From UHGV virus genome UHGV-0008619: a stretch of 40,339 bases of DNA. One strand, written 5' to 3'. A model generated the notes under the pieces. The model did no database searches. It worked only from the letters and a program-made list of their open reading frames with translations, and had not been told where the DNA came from. Positions 307-36,817 of the stretch are shown here, in pieces; position 1 is the stretch's first letter; each line of letters opens with the position of its first letter. The DNA is from a virus. Position numbers and translations under genes: made by a program.

Positions 307-339
307 GTATACATTTTGTTAACTGGAGGGATTAACATT

Positions 340-1470
340 ATGTCGCAAAGAAAAATCAGCGATGAGCAATTGATCGCTGAATACAACAACGGTTTAACGT
401 ACAAACAGATTGCTGAGAAGTACGGCATGTCAAAACGCAATGTCGAGCGCCTGGGCGCAAAACTGGCAAAACGCGGTTTATTATCAACACGCCGCGCGCC
501 TGGTTTTGGCGTCAATGGCGAGTCGTTGCTAGTCGATAAAAACGGCAATGTGATCATGCGCTGGATTAAAACAGCCCGTGACCGCGACGAAATGGAACAG
601 TTAATGGAAGCGGCCCGCGACGCTTTCACGGATGAAATACCACGCGCGGAGGCTGTGCCAGTGCCTGAAATTGATTTTCAAAAAAGCCTGGCACTTTACC
701 CGGTATTTGACCTGCATATCGGGGCGCTTGCTCATAAAGCAGAATGCGGTGAGAGCTACGATACTGGGATCGCTGAGCGCGTGTTAAATGACTTCTTTGA
801 CTACGCTGTTGGCGCTGCTCCGATGTCTGAAAAAGCCGTACTGCTCCTCGGTGGCGATCTGCTTCATTCTGACGGTATGGTCCCGGTGACGCCAATAAGC
901 GGGCACATTCTTGATCAAGATAGTCGCTACGCAAAACTTGTTTATGTGGCGATCCGGTCGGTCCGGCGGGCGGTAGGGAAGATGTTGCTAAATCATAAGG
1001 ATGTGGAAATCCAGGTGTTATCAGGGAATCATGATCAGTCTGGTATGATTTGGCTACGTGCGGCGCTTGCGGCTTTTTACGAAGATGAACCGCGCGTGAC
1101 GGTTGATGTGTCACCTACTATCGTCCACCACACGCAGTACGGGAAAACATTTCTTGCTTACCACCACGGGCACACTATCAAAAAACCGGAAAATTTATTG
1201 GCTGCTTGCGTATCTGACTGGCGCGATGATTTCGGCAAGTCGAAATATGTTTACGTCCATGTCGGACATTTGCACCATAAATCAGTAACAGAATCATCTA
1301 TAGGCATAGTTGAACACCACGGCACGTTAGCGGGCAAAGACGCTTATTCAACTAATGGAGGATGGAGATCGCAACGTTGCGCTGCGGTTATCCTTTACAG
1401 TCCTGATTATGGCGAAATTGGTCGCTTTGTATATAGGCCTGAAATGGTGGGGTGTCATGATGTGGGATGA
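340..1470 (+). CDS. HTH domain fused to calcineurin-like metallophosphoesterase (possible replication initiation/nuclease protein)
   Basis: GGAGGG RBS 9 nt upstream of ATG 340; N-terminal HTH (LTYKQIAEKYGMSKRNVERL); phosphoesterase-type motifs DLHIG, GGDLLHSDG, GNHD, GHLHH; directly upstream of helicase. Confidence 0.6.
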   Translation: MSQRKISDEQLIAEYNNGLTYKQIAEKYGMSKRNVERLGAKLAKRGLLSTRRAPGFGVNGESLLVDKNGNVIMRWIKTARDRDEMEQLMEAARDAFTDEIPRAEAVPVPEIDFQKSLALYPVFDLHIGALAHKAECGESYDTGIAERVLNDFFDYAVGAAPMSEKAVLLLGGDLLHSDGMVPVTPISGHILDQDSRYAKLVYVAIRSVRRAVGKMLLNHKDVEIQVLSGNHDQSGMIWLRAALAAFYEDEPRVTVDVSPTIVHHTQYGKTFLAYHHGHTIKKPENLLAACVSDWRDDFGKSKYVYVHVGHLHHKSVTESSIGIVEHHGTLAGKDAYSTNGGWRSQRCAAVILYSPDYGEIGRFVYRPEMVGCHDVG

Positions 1471-1963
1471 TTTGTTTACATATAGCGACGGCGTTCTATA
1501 TTGGTCTTGTAACCGTGCAAATAACAAAATAAAAGCAGGTAGCGTGGCTGGATGTAAACATTATCGCGGATATTGGACTGTACGCGTTAATGGTATTTGT
1601 TGCACATGGCGTCACCGCATTATCTGGGAAATGTTTAACGGCCCTATTCCTGATGGAATGGAAATAGATCACATAAATCATGTACCTGGTGACGATAGAA
1701 TCGAAAACTTAAGGATGGTGACAAGGAAGGAGAATAACAGAAACAAAACAATGCCATCAAGTAATACTAGCGGATGCGTTGGCGTTACGTGGAACAAGAA
1801 AACCAATAAATGGCGTGCGCAAATAGGTATAAGGGGGTCTGATGGGAAAAAGAAAACAATATACGTTTATTACGGTGACTCATTTGATGATGCCGTAAAA
1901 GCAAGAAAAGAAGCTGAAAGAATGTATAACTTTCATAGCAATCACGGTATTTCTTTACCCTGA
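1457..1963 (+). CDS. HNH homing endonuclease (HNH plus AP2-like DNA-binding region)
   Basis: ATG 1457 overlaps stop of upstream gene; motifs IKAGSVAGCKH, HRIIWEMFNGPIPDGMEIDHINHVPGDDRIENLR; paralogous to 35629..36135. Confidence 0.85.
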   Translation: MMWDDLFTYSDGVLYWSCNRANNKIKAGSVAGCKHYRGYWTVRVNGICCTWRHRIIWEMFNGPIPDGMEIDHINHVPGDDRIENLRMVTRKENNRNKTMPSSNTSGCVGVTWNKKTNKWRAQIGIRGSDGKKKTIYVYYGDSFDDAVKARKEAERMYNFHSNHGISLP

Positions 1964-1997
1964 ATTTTCCATTTTGTAAACCGGAGGAAATAACATA

Positions 1998-4448
1998 ATG
2001 GTAACTGAGCAAATAAACTCACTACGGCAGGAACGTGAGGCGTCAGTTATCGGCGGGCTGCTGTTAGGCGGCCTAACTCCTAACGCGCAAGATGTTCTCG
2101 CCACGCTTGATCCTGAAGTGTTCACAATCCCGCTCTATAGACGTGCGTTTGAAGTTATCCGGGCGCAAGCCAGAAACAGGAATCTTATCGACGCGTTGCT
2201 TGTTGGCGATGAGATTGGCAATGAAAATTTCGTACCTCTAATGCAAACGGCGCGTTCGTGCCCTTCTGCTGCCAACCTGAAGGGGTACGCACAGCTACTA
2301 CGTGAAGAGCACCAGCGGCGGCAGATGTTGGAACTCATCGACGATATGCGTTACAAGCTGGAAACAGGTACGCTTGAGGTCGTCAAAGAGACGATGAAGG
2401 ATTTTGATTCCCGATATTCAAAATTAAAGGTAACGAAAGACAAGATCATTCCGGTGTTGTTGCGCGATGCGGTACAGGAATATACGGATGTTTTAAGCAA
2501 GCGCATGGAATGCGGTGTTAATTCTGACAACATCAAAACAGGTATTGACCCGCTCGATGAAATGTTAGGCGGCATTAACGCTACTGATTTGGTACTTCTC
2601 GCCGGACGCCCTGGGTCTGGTAAAGCGCTAAAAAACAGTGAAAAAATACTGCTTGAAAATGGAGAATGGACTACTCATGGCAAAGTTAAGGTTGGTGATG
2701 TCATCGCATCAATAGACGGCAAGCCCTCTGTTGTTACAGGTGTCTTTCCTCAAGGCGTTAGGGATATTTACGAAATTGAATTCGAAGACGGTAGAAAAAT
2801 TGATAGCGCTGATTGCCATTTGTGGGAAATAAGTAGTACGAAGTGGAACGCTCCACGTGTAGTCGATACTGTCGGACTTAATGATTTACTTAGCAAGGTA
2901 CGCTATCAAGGCCGTGTACATATCCCTGTTTTTGGTGGCGATTGCGGTATTGACAATAATATCGGCATTGATCCGTGGTTGCTTGGCGCTCTTATAGGTG
3001 ATGGTTGCTTATCACATAGTGGCGTAAGTATTAGCTGCGGTCAGGATTACATACTTAACCGCGTTAAACTTACTTGCTGCGATCTTGATGTTAAGCGAAT
3101 TGGTAGTAATCAATATGATTACCGCATTACTGCAAAAGGAAGAGGATGCAAAAACCATCTGATCGATGCGCTTGGTAAAATGGGGCTTTATGGTAAGCAT
3201 TCATGGGAAAAATTTATTCCGGATATTATTTATTCATCAAGTAAAAATATCAGGCTGGGCGTGCTCGTTGGGCTACTTGAAACTGATGGTTGGATTGAAA
3301 AAAAAGGGAGTTTGTATTATGCGTCATGTAGCAAATCGTTAACAAACGATGTGATTCGTCTTGCTAGATCACTTGGCGGGTGCGGGCACATGAGAGTAAA
3401 AAATAATGTTACTTTCTCATACAAGGGAGAAAAAAGAATTGGTAGGGATTCTTATATTGCGACGTTAAAACTTCCTGACTGGGTTTTAGCAAAAATAGAA
3501 CACCCTCGTCTAAAATCAAGATTACCAGAAAACAGGATGTATAAACACGGATTGCAAATTAAATCAGTTACGTTTAAAGGTAAGGAGGAATGCACATGTA
3601 TTATGGTTAGCCATGATAGTCACCTTTATATTACTTCTGACTATATCGTTACACATAATACATCTCTTGCATTAAAGATAGCTCAACAAGCTGCTATGCG
3701 CCCATATCCAGGCATGGAAGGTCAGCGGGTAGGCGTTTTGCTGTTTACGCTTGAAATGTCACTCGATCAGATGACTGAGCGTGCTATAGCTGGCGCTGGC
3801 AATTTATCAACTGACTGCCTGCGCAATCCGGTAAAACTTGATGATGAGGGGTGGGCGCATGTCGGCCAGGGTATGAGCGCACTTGCTAATCTTGATGTGT
3901 GGATCGTTGACGCGTCGCAGTTAACGGTTGAGGAAATACGCGCAACAACGGAACGCATGAAACAGGATCACCCAAATTTGGGTATGGTAATGATTGACTA
4001 TATCGGTTTAATGAAGCTGGCTAAAGCCGAACGTCACGATCTCGCCGTGGGGCAATTATCGTGGTCGTTAAAGATGATGGCGAAAGAATTGCGCGTACCA
4101 GTGTTGGCACTGGCGCAATTATCACGCCGAGTTGAGGAACGACCGAACAAGCGCCCTAACAATTCTGATCTTCGTGATTCTGGCAACCTTGAGCAAGATG
4201 CCGACAGGATCATCATGGTTTACCGCGATGGGTATTACGACGAACAGTCTGTTGCCCGCGAATATATGGAAATCATTGTGTCAAAAAACCGTCATGGTAA
4301 GTCTGGAACTGTTTACCAGCGGTTTGATGACAACGGTAATATCTTGCCATGCGACCAGGCTCGCGCAGCCGCCGCGTGTATTCAGTCAATGAATCATCGC
4401 ACAAGCCGTTTTAACCAACGAAACAATCAGAATAACACATCTTTTTAA
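1998..4448 (+). CDS. DnaB-like replicative helicase, intein-containing
   Basis: GGAGG RBS; Walker A GRPGSGK interrupted and resumed as TSLALKIA; downstream helicase motifs FTLEMS, DYIGLM, NRHGKSG; 816 aa because of a 345 aa insertion. Confidence 0.9.
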   Translation: MVTEQINSLRQEREASVIGGLLLGGLTPNAQDVLATLDPEVFTIPLYRRAFEVIRAQARNRNLIDALLVGDEIGNENFVPLMQTARSCPSAANLKGYAQLLREEHQRRQMLELIDDMRYKLETGTLEVVKETMKDFDSRYSKLKVTKDKIIPVLLRDAVQEYTDVLSKRMECGVNSDNIKTGIDPLDEMLGGINATDLVLLAGRPGSGKALKNSEKILLENGEWTTHGKVKVGDVIASIDGKPSVVTGVFPQGVRDIYEIEFEDGRKIDSADCHLWEISSTKWNAPRVVDTVGLNDLLSKVRYQGRVHIPVFGGDCGIDNNIGIDPWLLGALIGDGCLSHSGVSISCGQDYILNRVKLTCCDLDVKRIGSNQYDYRITAKGRGCKNHLIDALGKMGLYGKHSWEKFIPDIIYSSSKNIRLGVLVGLLETDGWIEKKGSLYYASCSKSLTNDVIRLARSLGGCGHMRVKNNVTFSYKGEKRIGRDSYIATLKLPDWVLAKIEHPRLKSRLPENRMYKHGLQIKSVTFKGKEECTCIMVSHDSHLYITSDYIVTHNTSLALKIAQQAAMRPYPGMEGQRVGVLLFTLEMSLDQMTERAIAGAGNLSTDCLRNPVKLDDEGWAHVGQGMSALANLDVWIVDASQLTVEEIRATTERMKQDHPNLGMVMIDYIGLMKLAKAERHDLAVGQLSWSLKMMAKELRVPVLALAQLSRRVEERPNKRPNNSDLRDSGNLEQDADRIIMVYRDGYYDEQSVAREYMEIIVSKNRHGKSGTVYQRFDDNGNILPCDQARAAAACIQSMNHRTSRFNQRNNQNNTSF
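2625..3659 (+). mobile_element. Intein with LAGLIDADG homing endonuclease domain inserted in helicase P-loop
   Basis: Insertion between GSGK and T of Walker A; two LAGLIDADG-type motifs (LLGALIGDGCL, LVGLLETDGWI); ends THN followed by Thr +1; starts with Ala not Cys/Ser. Confidence 0.8.
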
Positions 4449-5295: not shown

Positions 5296-5523
5296 ATGAA
5301 CAAGGAATTAGATTTAACCGTGGAGGATTTGAGCACGATTGCGGAATACATGCGCGGCGGCGATCCTGATAAGCCTGTCACGGTTGATATAAAATATTTA
5401 AAAGGCGCTTTTATGACTTCTTCGAGATTGGTAAGTCTTGATGCAATTATAAAAGCGCGCTGGGAAAGTTGGCAGGAATATAAAGCGAAAAATAAGGCAA
5501 AAAGAAATAATGCGGCAAATTAG
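5296..5523 (+). CDS. hypothetical protein
   Basis: 75 aa ORF in compact + strand operon. Confidence 0.45.
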   Translation: MNKELDLTVEDLSTIAEYMRGGDPDKPVTVDIKYLKGAFMTSSRLVSLDAIIKARWESWQEYKAKNKAKRNNAAN

Positions 5524-34298: not shown

Positions 34299-34883
34299 TC
34301 AGCCTCGTTTAAAGCTCATCACACGCGGTACAAGCGCTTCTTTTGCTTTCGGCTTACGTTTGCCTTTCTTCGCGGTTTTTTCTTCTTCCTTCGGCTCCTC
34401 TGCCTGTTCAACTGCCTGTTCTGCTGCATCAGTCGCCTTTTCCGCCTGGTCTAATGCCTTCTCAACGACTTCAGCGGCCTGCATAGCTGCCAACTGTGCT
34501 TCATTAGACTCAGCCAGGATCGGGAAGAATGCGTCAAAGATGCGGCCCACCATGTAAGCATAAGTCTCGTTCGCCGGATGAGTTGGATCGGTGGTCGCCA
34601 CGACGCCTACATCACTTAAAACGTGGAATGTAGTGTGGGCGCATTCATGGACCAGCGTACCAAGCTCATTATCGAATACTGCGATCACGTAGAAGTTACC
34701 GCCTTTCTCGCCAGTGCAAGTAAGCGTCAATCCTCCTGCCAGTTCAAAATCAGGTTCGATTGGGATCCCTGCCTTTTCGCAAAATTCATAGAACATGTCG
34801 CGAGTCGGGCAGAAGAAAACTGTTGTATGCTCAAAGAGCGGGACTTTGAATTGAGGCAACTTAATGCCTTTACCCTTAGCCAT
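34299..34883 (-). CDS. HExxH-motif protein with Ala/Glu/Lys-rich low-complexity C-terminal tail (possible zinc metallopeptidase-like)
   Basis: 194 aa; motif LVHECAHTTFH; AGGAG RBS; C-terminal tail AAMQAAEVVEKALDQAEKATDAAEQAVEQAEEPKEEEKTAKKGKRKPKAK. Confidence 0.55.
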   Translation of the reverse strand: MAKGKGIKLPQFKVPLFEHTTVFFCPTRDMFYEFCEKAGIPIEPDFELAGGLTLTCTGEKGGNFYVIAVFDNELGTLVHECAHTTFHVLSDVGVVATTDPTHPANETYAYMVGRIFDAFFPILAESNEAQLAAMQAAEVVEKALDQAEKATDAAEQAVEQAEEPKEEEKTAKKGKRKPKAKEALVPRVMSFKRG

Positions 34884-35154
34884 CAGAATAATCTCCTGTC
34901 TGGTTTGCTTTTACTTCCTGTTTATACAGCGGCAGGAATGACATAAAACACTGAAAACGGCGCTTCATCAGTACCGTTTCCAGAATTTTATAAAATTGGT
35001 TAATGGCGCTTTCTTCTACCCAGGCAGCGCCTAACCTGTTAATGGGATGACGTGCATCCGGTATTGCGTGTTTTTGACTTTTCCGCCGTCGCTCGCGGGA
35101 AGGATTGGCCCGGTTATGGCTGGCTGGCAGAAACGGCGACACGCCAACGCGCTG

Positions 35155-35625
35155 TTATTCTTTGCGTAAGCACTGCGTTTTGATGTAGCCCTGAAGCGCG
35201 GTTATCTTCGCGTCCTTCTCTTTTAGTTGTTCTCTGAGGGATAGATAAGCCGATTCAGCGTCGGGAGTGAGTCTACAGGAGGCTCCATTAATGGTGCTGG
35301 CGGATCCGGTGGAGTCGGACACTCGCACGGGTATTGCGTTGACGCGCAGCCGGATAGTACCGTTATCAATGCCAGTGCGCAGATCGGCAATGTCAGATCT
35401 GATAGCTTTAATCTCATCGTGATACCTCTTATCAAGTTTTGACAGTTCGGCGTTTCGCTCCTTCATCTGCTGAATAGTGTTACTTGCCGTTTTCAGTGCG
35501 CCTTGCGTGGTCGTTAATTCTTCCTGTAACCTTGTCGCCTCACTCTGGTAATGGCATGTTACGGCTGTAAGGCTGGCAATGATGCAAACAACAGCGGCGA
35601 TGATTAACGTCTTCACCTTGTCCAT
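35155..35625 (-). CDS. i-spanin (Rz-like)
   Basis: N-terminal TM segment, coiled-coil periplasmic domain, embedded +1 frame lipoprotein gene. Confidence 0.75.
   Translation of the reverse strand: MDKVKTLIIAAVVCIIASLTAVTCHYQSEATRLQEELTTTQGALKTASNTIQQMKERNAELSKLDKRYHDEIKAIRSDIADLRTGIDNGTIRLRVNAIPVRVSDSTGSASTINGASCRLTPDAESAYLSLREQLKEKDAKITALQGYIKTQCLRKE
35223..35417 (-). CDS. o-spanin (Rz1-like lipoprotein), embedded in Rz
   Basis: MRLKLSDLTLPICALALITVLSGC lipobox followed by Pro-rich short mature region; AAGAGG RBS. Confidence 0.7.
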   Translation of the reverse strand: MRLKLSDLTLPICALALITVLSGCASTQYPCECPTPPDPPAPLMEPPVDSLPTLNRLIYPSENN

Positions 35626-35628
35626 GTT

Positions 35629-36135
35629 TCACCCCTCGCAACCCATCGAAGGTGCATATTCACCATAGAAAAAGTTTTCCGCCAAAATGCGAGCGGCGAT
35701 CGCTTCGTCTAGTGAGTCAAATAAACCAATAGATATACGCTTACCTTCATTGTCGGTAATTCTTACTCGCCATTTAGGCTTGCTTCGCTCTGTTTTGTGG
35801 TAGCTAACACCCCTGAATGCAGACAATGTGTGAGTGGCAATATGTTTCTTGTTTCTGCAGTTATGCGCATCATCTGTTTCTCGCAGGTTTACTATCCTGT
35901 TGTCGGTTTTTATTCCATTAATATGGTCAATGTCCTTTTCGGGCCACACTCCATAATGGAAAAACCACGCAAGGCGATGCGCTTTATATCTTCCTATGTG
36001 TATGTATCCGCTTTTATGCTTACACCCTGCTACGCTTCCGGCCTTGATTCTCCCGTGAGGACTAATCTTATAGGTGAAAATACCTGTCGCTGGATCGTAG
36101 TGTAGCTTTCGTTTTAGTTCATCATCACTTTCCAT
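35629..36135 (-). CDS. HNH homing endonuclease (HNH plus AP2-like), inserted between endolysin and spanin genes
   Basis: IKAGSVAGCKH, HRLAWFFHYGVWPEKDIDHINGIKTDNRIVNLR; paralogue of 1457..1963; overlaps both neighbours' ends. Confidence 0.85.
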   Translation of the reverse strand: MESDDELKRKLHYDPATGIFTYKISPHGRIKAGSVAGCKHKSGYIHIGRYKAHRLAWFFHYGVWPEKDIDHINGIKTDNRIVNLRETDDAHNCRNKKHIATHTLSAFRGVSYHKTERSKPKWRVRITDNEGKRISIGLFDSLDEAIAARILAENFFYGEYAPSMGCEG

Positions 36136-36616
36136 TGGTTACGCCCCATTCACATATAGCACGTTCAATATCGCGACGATTCTTTAAGCCTTGTATATAC
36201 CTCCCATTGTCATACACCCAGCGATCCATCTCCTTACACGCTCCCTTAAAGTCGCCTTTGTTTATTTTTTTTAACAAGGTTGATTTTTTGAAAGCGTCAA
36301 CCCCGATATTGTATGAAAAGCTAATTAGCGCGGCGCGTTGGTAGTCATTCATGTCAACTTTTACATAACGATCGACCGCCTTTTTGTAAACGGCTAAGTG
36401 TTTTTGTAAAAGTCTATCGCATTCATCAGGTGTGTATCTCTTACCAGGGACAACATCAGGGCCGGTTATGCCATTGCATACAGTTAGCACGCCTCCGGTA
36501 TCGTAATAAGGCTCGTAAGCCGTACCCTCAACCCATATAAGCAAAACAGATGCAATGGCTAACGTTCCACCAGCCGCCGCCTTAGTTAGTCGGTTTTTCA
36601 GCGATTGGCTAATCAT
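36125..36616 (-). CDS. SAR endolysin (T4-lysozyme-like, phage 21 R-type)
   Basis: N-terminal weakly hydrophobic Gly/Ala-rich SAR segment (AAAGGTLAIASVLLI), lysozyme-type motifs (VCNGITG, SFSYNIG...STLLKKIN, RRDIERAICEWG). Confidence 0.85.
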   Translation of the reverse strand: MISQSLKNRLTKAAAGGTLAIASVLLIWVEGTAYEPYYDTGGVLTVCNGITGPDVVPGKRYTPDECDRLLQKHLAVYKKAVDRYVKVDMNDYQRAALISFSYNIGVDAFKKSTLLKKINKGDFKGACKEMDRWVYDNGRYIQGLKNRRDIERAICEWGVTNGK

Positions 36617-36817
36617 TTACTTATTCCCCATTCGCGCGTCGTGTTCCTCTTGCGCTCGCTTATTCTCCTGTGATTTGAAGTAATAATTAACGGCAAATGT
36701 GCCTACGGTTGATAAGATACCCACAAAGACGGCAATGTCATTGATGGTTATCGCGCCGAAAAAAGCAGTTACGGCCCCAGTCACATACGCACACGCCTCC
36801 CGCATTCTGTCGAACAT
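36617..36817 (-). CDS. class II holin (pinholin-like)
   Basis: 66 aa, two TM segments, dual Met start (M1/M5), charged C-terminus; immediately upstream of SAR endolysin. Confidence 0.7.
   Translation of the reverse strand: MFDRMREACAYVTGAVTAFFGAITINDIAVFVGILSTVGTFAVNYYFKSQENKRAQEEHDARMGNK

Follow-up and report, generated by a model that had tools for sequence, protein, structure and literature searches.

Two free-standing endonuclease genes in a mEp021-like phage genome

The 40,339-nucleotide viral sequence UHGV-0008619 (called the window here, meaning this whole stretch of DNA) belongs to a new relative of the mEp021 ('mEpimmI') temperate coliphages, with Escherichia coli as host, and carries two genes, HNH-A and HNH-B, for predicted free-standing endonucleases that combine HNH_3 and AP2 domains (Table 1). 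HNH-A lies between a phosphoesterase gene, annotated in relatives as 'DNA repair exonuclease', and a DnaB-type helicase gene (1998-4448, plus strand), and HNH-B lies on the other strand between an endolysin gene and the spanin gene Rz. In both regions the window is 86-93% identical to the phages mEp021, mEp515, mEp010, mEp554, mEp044, mEp013, and MagusPhagus. Each HNH gene has its own start codon and intact genes on either side, and each is a separate open reading frame (ORF) outside any intron or intein; for HNH-A, translation could also begin at an ATG at 1460, and an extended ORF from 1355 is less likely. An initial annotation, made from the sequence alone, had proposed two homologous free-standing HNH-AP2 homing endonuclease genes at these positions, which the ORFs and Pfam HNH_3 matches confirm, and had placed HNH-A between the phosphoesterase and helicase genes with an overlap of the upstream stop, which we find to be a 14-nt overlap with the phosphoesterase 3' end.

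The two proteins align with 38% identity over 141 aa (BLASTP, E value 4e-21), so that unrelatedness is ruled out, and the IKAGSVAGCKH and DHIN...R(I/V)xNLR blocks that had been described as shared are indeed present in both. The codons for the 11-residue block differ between the two genes at 8 of 11 third positions; the shared block therefore reflects conservation at the protein level, and recent gene conversion between HNH-A and HNH-B is ruled out as its source. A tblastn search of the whole window found no third HNH copy. Homologues of the HNH proteins occur in more than 3,000 phage records, and HNH-A and HNH-B are separate acquisitions, related only at the family level and with no duplication inside this genome, because both have closer kin among the HNH genes of other phages (62-66% identity for HNH-A and 59-63% for HNH-B) than in each other. 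The term 'paralogous' in the initial annotation thus holds as family-level homology but not as in-genome duplication.

Domain architecture, selection, and expression

Both proteins match Pfam HNH_3 (PF13392) far above its cut-off of 24.8 bits, HNH-A with 76.3 bits (1.4e-21) and HNH-B with 52.1 bits (5e-14). AP2 (PF00847) matches the C-terminal third of each protein at 23.0 and 23.3 bits (E value about 1e-4), below the cut-off of 33.3, and many homologues have a precomputed PF00847 match. A 75-sequence family alignment contains twelve invariant positions, including a D-H pair, the Asn of the NLR motif, and distal Asn residues, and all twelve are kept in both proteins; invariant columns include D71, H72, N84, N93, and N96 of HNH-A and D70, H71, N83, N92, and N95 of HNH-B. 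From general knowledge of HNH enzymes, we take the invariant D-H...N...N columns to be catalytic or metal-binding residues.

A sequence search of the PDB with both proteins returned chance matches only, so a fold comparison was needed, and for this an AlphaFold2 model of HNH-B alone (predicted local distance difference test score, pLDDT, 89.5) was compared with solved structures. The modelled HNH-B has a beta-beta-alpha-metal fold and resembles I-HmuI, a solved HNH homing endonuclease, and its predicted AP2 half forms a three-stranded sheet on a helix that can be superposed on AP2/ERF structures; Foldseek with the same model returned AP2/ERF domains independently. As judged from this model, the architecture appears to be an I-HmuI-like nuclease half, with an N-terminal DNA-contact region and a His-Me finger, joined to a C-terminal AP2 DNA-binding half.

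Pairwise ratios of nonsynonymous to synonymous substitution rates (dN/dS), in informative comparisons, are 0.08-0.23 for HNH-B and 0.08-0.10 for HNH-A (against mEp010 and contig L018), and those of the endolysin gene linked to HNH-B are similar (0.10-0.13); both HNH genes are thus under purifying selection. Since the HNH starts overlap the upstream genes, both genes are presumably co-transcribed and translationally coupled with them. Consensus scans found no excess of promoter-like sites over shuffled sequence, and terminator-like sites are commoner near HNH-B than in shuffles (7 vs 2.3 +/- 1.8), with none that we assign as a control element.

HNH-A travels with the end of the phosphoesterase gene

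Three of the seven phages (mEp515, mEp021, and mEp010) and the metagenome contigs L018 and L019 carry HNH-A at the same site, at 92-98% identity, and the remaining four (mEp554, mEp044, mEp013, and MagusPhagus) are without it. Alignment with these four defines the empty site, which reads ...CGCTTTGTTTATTACCCTGAATTTTCC... and is missing exactly 521 bp of the window, a segment bounded by CCTGAA at 1438-1443 and 1959-1964. A megablast search of 5,426 complete E. coli genomes, which sees only matches of at least about 85% nucleotide identity, found 30 related prophages and no match to HNH-A; in the 14 prophages with both flanks aligned, the gap is exactly the same 521 bp. The phosphoesterase of the empty allele ends ...GRFVYYPEFSIL (...YYPEFSIL, stop TAA), beyond the point that corresponds to the HNH-A stop codon.

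The difference between occupied and empty genomes extends upstream of HNH-A. The last part of the phosphoesterase gene (1226-1443), which in the window ends ...GRFVYRPEMVGCHDVG, is 65-80% identical to the four HNH-less phages vs 93-98% to the three HNH-A-bearing phages. We call this diverged tail type 2; it is found in six of six genomes with HNH-A, and the type 1 tail in four of four phages without it. The rest of the phosphoesterase gene shows a mosaic pattern that is independent of HNH status, and directly downstream of HNH-A identity to the HNH-less phages is 88-100%. At the other end, the last four codons and stop of HNH-A (encoding ISLP) are leftover recipient sequence read in another frame (TTTCTTTACCCTGA vs the empty-site TTTATTACCCTGA), and they lie beyond the native end seen in the Drexlerviridae relatives of HNH-A, which finish ...FHENHG(RS/K). 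On these alignments, the mobile unit at this locus, cassette A, is about 740 bp long and joins HNH-A to the final ~210 bp of the phosphoesterase gene, so that HNH-A is no bare insertion but travels with a replaced upstream gene segment.

No donor of the type-2 tail was found: it shares 44/74 identical residues with the Drexlerviridae homologues, and the HNH-less allele shares 41/73 with them, so that the tail is not measurably the closer of the two. Drexlerviridae had been considered as the donor by way of a resemblance between ...RPEMVG and ...RPEMF/RPKMFG, which was discarded as too short to count.

HNH-B travels with a complete endolysin allele

No gene lies between endolysin and Rz in the seven phages or in 35 related prophages of complete E. 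coli genomes, and in these HNH-B-less genomes endolysin and Rz overlap by about 13 nt. The megablast search of the 5,426 complete E. coli genomes, with its limit of about 85% nucleotide identity, returned no match to HNH-B either. HNH-B does occupy this site in 15 contigs from draft genomes or metagenomes, and assemblies GCA_049208025.1 and GCA_015730745.1 contain examples of HNH-B-bearing prophages. As had been suggested, comparison with relatives without the insertions is informative: neither gene is conserved in all of them (HNH-A in 3/7 phages, HNH-B in 0/7).

Nucleotide similarity to HNH-B-less relatives stops at 35641 and resumes at 36552, and the window endolysin is only 55% identical in amino acid sequence to that of the seven relatives, which are 96-99% identical to one another. 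This break, together with the endolysin divergence, shows that the differing unit (cassette B) is a ~990-bp block made of a complete foreign endolysin allele, which we call type 2, and HNH-B. The linkage of the two genes holds in both directions. A large protein collection contains HNH-B homologues of 74-93% identity, from mEp021-like prophages and from metagenome contigs, and their position is the same in every case; the endolysins beside HNH-B in three of these contexts (L014-L016) are type 2, being 92-100% identical to that of the window and 53-56% to type 1, and L015 has the type-2 endolysin despite a different holin allele (55%). In the reverse test, an HNH_3 gene lies directly downstream in 11 of the 11 further contexts shown of type-2 endolysins (96-98% identical). 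Type-2 endolysins of more than 60% identity are absent from 50,697 phage records, and in the large protein collection type 2 occurs only beside HNH-B; its donor lineage was not found in these searches.

The 3' end of HNH-B preserves a trace of the gene that was displaced. Type-1 endolysins end ...AVCEWGE(K/T)WTR, with the stop 10 nt inside Rz, and HNH-B of L015 ends ...APSNGCEWGETWTR (...GCEWGETWTR), sharing these nine codons and the position of the stop with the type-1 endolysin. Most HNH-B copies end ...GCEGETWTR and the window copy ...GCEG, and in distant relatives the native HNH-B-type protein ends at about ...APSxGC. The presence of a type-1 endolysin ending within HNH-B shows that cassette B was joined to a type-1 backbone at a shared Cys codon, and that the HNH frame in this way inherited the terminal codons of the endolysin, its stop, and its overlap with Rz. 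In 10/10 closest relatives HNH-B overlaps Rz by 13 nt. The window has a private 1-nt insertion relative to the same ten HNH-B copies, a T at 35631, by which the stop (35629-35631) comes five codons early and the Rz overlap is lost, a 3-nt spacer separating it from the Rz ATG (35625-35623). The initial annotation had HNH-B overlapping the ends of both neighbours, which stands for the endolysin (11 nt) but not for Rz. Its description of the two genes as independent insertions is likewise right as to separate acquisition and mobility and not as to simple insertion, since at each locus a replaced upstream segment comes along.

Two contigs (L016 4001-4519 and L042 1982-2500, corresponding to window 35958-35710) carry HNH-B variants in which the type-2 endolysin and the N-terminal half of the HNH protein are nearly the same as in the window, and the linker and AP2 half share only 50-51 of 65 residues with it, which suggests that the DNA-binding module is exchanged in mosaic fashion or changes fast.

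Table 1. Features of the two HNH loci, in coordinates of the window.
Feature	Coordinates	Strand	Remarks
Phosphoesterase gene	316-1470	+	Helix-turn-helix + metallophosphoesterase; coordinates of the ORF, probable start ATG 340
Type-2 phosphoesterase 3' segment	1226-1443	+	Diverged; linked to HNH-A
Segment missing at empty sites	1444-1964	+	521 bp
HNH-A	1457-1963	+	168 aa; predicted free-standing HNH_3 + AP2 endonuclease gene
Rz i-spanin gene	35155-35625	-	Pfam Phage_lysis; resident flank, outside cassette B
Rz1	35223-35435	-	Embedded in Rz; Pfam Rz1
Remnant of displaced type-1 endolysin 3' end	35626-35640	-	Now the 3' end of HNH-B; includes extra T 35631
HNH-B	35629-36135	-	168 aa; predicted free-standing HNH_3 + AP2 endonuclease gene
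Type-2 endolysin allele	36125-36616	-	Signal-anchor-release (SAR) lysozyme, PF00959; always linked to HNH-B
Class II holin gene	36617-36817	-	Pfam Phage_holin_2_3; resident, flanking cassette B opposite Rz

Spread of the cassettes and fidelity to the upstream gene

The block of type-2 endolysin and HNH-B is 98.6-100% identical to that of the window in ten further genomes (L032-L041), with about nine mostly shared differences in 985 nt. In the same genomes identity to the window is 87.6-97% in the holin gene, 83.8-96.6% in Rz, and 79-99% in the 370 bp upstream of the holin gene. The window Rz is 97.9% identical to that of the HNH-less mEp013 and 84-97% to those of HNH-B-bearing genomes, the holin gene ranges from 87.6 to 98% identity across genomes with and without HNH-B alike, and the best matches to Rz and the upstream region of the window are in the HNH-B-less mEp013 and mEp010 (97.9-99.2%). 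Recent horizontal spread would predict one block in many backgrounds, and this is the pattern found for cassette B, for which the incongruence between cassette and flanks is strong.

Beyond the close relatives, each HNH gene keeps its upstream neighbour. In every member of the HNH-B clade that was checked, the HNH gene is directly preceded by a PF00959 lysozyme gene and followed by a spanin gene or a gene in the spanin position; the members checked are from E. coli (74-93% identity), Salmonella (61%), Yersinia (59%), a Hendrixvirinae Morganella phage (59%), and a metagenome phage (63%); terminases and holins differ among these members, and the gene downstream encodes a DUF2570 protein in Yersinia and is unannotated in the Morganella phage. 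The virulent Drexlerviridae phages ACG-M12 and C119 carry the nearest outside relatives of HNH-A (62-65%). There the HNH gene directly follows a 'DNA repair exonuclease' gene whose product matches the window phosphoesterase with 55% identity along the full length, and the downstream neighbours differ. HNH relatives at or below 55% identity lie in unrelated contexts. The likely target of each HNH protein is thus the upstream gene (the phosphoesterase for HNH-A and the endolysin for HNH-B), because the conserved neighbour is always the upstream gene and is the same gene whose allele is HNH-linked. HNH genes, homing, and inteins go unmentioned in the mEpimmI genome paper, and neither it nor the other literature that we found mentions the lysozyme-spanin and exonuclease-linked clades or the linked alleles.

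Probable intronless homing and its alternatives

HNH-A and HNH-B are probably free-standing HNH-AP2 homing endonucleases that spread by 'intronless homing' with co-conversion of flanking DNA. The observations behind this reading are the domains, intact catalytic residues, purifying selection, site polymorphism, allele linkage, remnants, incongruence, and conserved upstream neighbour, and from these features of the sequences we infer nuclease activity, a target location in the upstream gene, resistance of the linked allele, and spread driven by cleavage. In a cell that holds both an HNH-bearing and an HNH-less relative, through co-infection or as a phage together with a prophage, the enzyme would nick or cut the upstream gene in its HNH-less form, some way from where the endonuclease gene itself is inserted. 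The break would be resected and repaired from the HNH-bearing genome, and repair would copy both the endonuclease gene and its diverged, presumably uncleavable, allele of the target gene. The outcome would be co-conversion, visible as marker exclusion of the recipient, over an interval that takes in the 3' part of the phosphoesterase gene at locus A and the whole endolysin gene at locus B; by analogy with known systems, the marker exclusion raised as a possible role in the initial annotation would be a natural consequence of such homing. The original capture of each cassette into a mEp021-type backbone was probably a one-off junction in the last codons of the recipient gene, leaving the remnant in which each HNH frame now ends.

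Several points weigh against this interpretation. Ordinary homologous recombination between mosaic temperate phages could move a block of about 1 kb with no endonuclease taking part, and the donor lineages of both type-2 alleles have not been found. The incongruence between cassette and flanks is only modest for cassette A, where it draws on six genomes. The prophages without HNH-B come from complete genomes and the HNH-B-bearing contigs from drafts, which are different data sets whose frequencies are non-comparable. The AP2 scores of both proteins also fall under the Pfam gathering threshold.

Developed into an explanation of its own, the first of these points would make the HNH genes passengers in general homologous recombination at conserved flanks, with the endonuclease uninvolved. 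There is much in this phage group to recommend it, as the genomes are mosaic everywhere, the phosphoesterase gene contains patches of 65-85% identity unrelated to HNH status, and the early region and the regions downstream of Rz are variable as well. We nevertheless consider it unlikely: passengers would not be expected to hold the same upstream gene across unrelated phage families, as the two HNH clades do, the type-2 alleles are never seen without the HNH gene, and a ~1-kb block keeps 98.6-100% identity although the sequence just outside it differs by up to 20% between backgrounds.

Domestication, in which the proteins would serve the phage as a terminase co-factor (as HK97 gp74 does), as an AP2-type DNA-binding regulator, or in attacks on rival phages or satellites, seems to us improbable. 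The purifying selection on both genes would fit such a function, as would the late-operon location of HNH-B, which in relatives is about 2 kb upstream of the terminase genes, and domesticated HNH and AP2 proteins are documented (PMC10448857). Neither gene adjoins the terminase, however, and one or both genes are lacking in most close relatives that have the same terminase (Sf6-type small subunit, Terminase_6C large subunit), and on the same grounds we set aside the role in packaging that the initial annotation had raised. The intact catalytic residues speak against a pure DNA-binding role, and a competitive benefit is compatible with homing and is no true alternative to it. That both genes are instead inactive relics of past invasions is very improbable. 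Homing endonuclease genes are expected to degenerate after fixation, and the private frameshifting insertion of one nucleotide near the 3' end of the window HNH-B could be taken as a beginning of this, but it costs only the last five residues, which derive from the endolysin remnant and were no part of the native protein. In addition, dN/dS stays at 0.08-0.23, no invariant residue is missing, and a cassette that is nearly identical across many backgrounds implies that it spread recently.

If intronless homing is the correct reading, the two cassettes show selfish endonucleases shaping the genomes of mosaic temperate gut coliphages in natural sequence data, with whole lysis-gene alleles and part of a replication/repair gene carried between genomes, prophages included. 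Isolates with and without HNH-A coexist in one laboratory collection (the mEp phages), with empty and occupied sites and linked alleles defined to the base, and the predicted enzymes are a possible source of site-specific nickases with an AP2 recognition module. More tentatively, and with somewhat more doubt than confidence, we suggest that HNH-AP2 clades may be long-lived 'gene trackers', each locked to one phage gene across phage families or host genera: a GH24 lysozyme for the HNH-B clade and an Mre11-like exonuclease for the HNH-A clade, the endonuclease and its cleavage-immune target allele together making up a two-part selfish unit. Such trackers would drive the replacement of lysis and replication gene alleles in gut populations of temperate phages and prophages, and their natural targets could be read from comparisons of empty and occupied sites.

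Other mobile and variable elements nearby

The DnaB-type helicase gene downstream of HNH-A contains a 345-aa intein (2625-3659) in the Walker A loop (GRPGSGK/ALKNSE...YIVTHN/TSLAL, slashes marking the junctions), with Ala at position 1, a His-Asn end, Thr at +1, and LAGLIDADG blocks. Its Ala1/Cys/Thr pattern, we presume, resembles that of class 3 inteins. The intein is absent from all seven phage relatives and from L018 and L019, whose helicases are 471 aa long, and the 13 codons after it (3660-3697) have diverged from the intein-less alleles. With it, the window has three homing-type elements, this one only about 660 bp away from HNH-A.

Further HNH genes occur elsewhere in relatives. mEp013 has another free-standing HNH gene downstream of Rz (L008 616-1101), L014 has a 190-aa HNH_3 gene in the position downstream of Rz (1631-2203), and the early region of the L015 prophage (L017 4001-5061) has two tandem HNH_3 genes. 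The phage group thus seems to have several endonuclease hot spots. Relatives differ greatly in the interval between Rz and the terminase genes (34299-34994 in the window), where they have various small genes and mEp013 has the HNH gene; the window's 194-aa ORF there (34299-34883) has only patchy similarity in relatives. At about 5417-5510, mEp515 and mEp021 have an extra gene of ~0.8 kb, annotated in mEp021 as an N-4/N-6 DNA methyltransferase, which the window and the other relatives are without.

Comparison with known systems

The closest parallels in mode of spread are the free-standing seg and mob endonucleases of phage T4, which cut hundreds of bp from their own genes, co-convert flanking DNA, and cause marker exclusion, and whose HNH types nick (PMC2988022). 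Like T4 MobA, MobE, SegF, and SegG, HNH-A and HNH-B are stand-alone genes between conserved genes and are variably present among relatives, and the proposal that they target a neighbouring gene at a distance and co-convert the flanks would, by analogy, give them the same strategy (PMC2988022, PMC2790892). They differ in domains, since the Mob proteins have a zinc finger or another C-terminal domain and the Seg proteins are GIY-YIG enzymes, whereas the window proteins have AP2, and in hosts, which are virulent T-even phages for the T4 systems and temperate mEp021-type phages and prophages here. The co-transferred allele also differs in scale: it amounts to a few polymorphisms in T4, while cassette B carries a complete, highly divergent gene (55% amino acid identity). 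I-HmuI of Bacillus phage SPO1 (PDB 1u3e), only 21% identical to the window protein in sequence, is an intron-encoded HNH nicking endonuclease with a C-terminal helix-turn-helix, in contrast to the free-standing window proteins with their AP2 fold.

HK97 gp74 is comparable to HNH-B as an HNH protein in a siphovirus late region. However, gp74-type genes adjoin the terminase and are conserved in the packaging module, whereas HNH-A and HNH-B are not terminase-adjacent and are absent from most close relatives. Proteins that combine HNH and AP2 domains are a recognised class of homing endonucleases, whose genes are enriched beside essential phage genes and at the boundaries of genetic exchange (PMC10448857). 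The window proteins share with this class, which comprises phage, cyanobacterial, and ciliate proteins and includes the 'IPA-HNH' of ICP1, an N-terminal HNH and a C-terminal AP2 domain, and unlike the divergent IPA-HNH domains of ICP1 they match the canonical Pfam HNH_3. We regard HNH-A and HNH-B as clear, though unexceptional, members of a familiar type of mobile element, which leave the current understanding of such elements as it stands.

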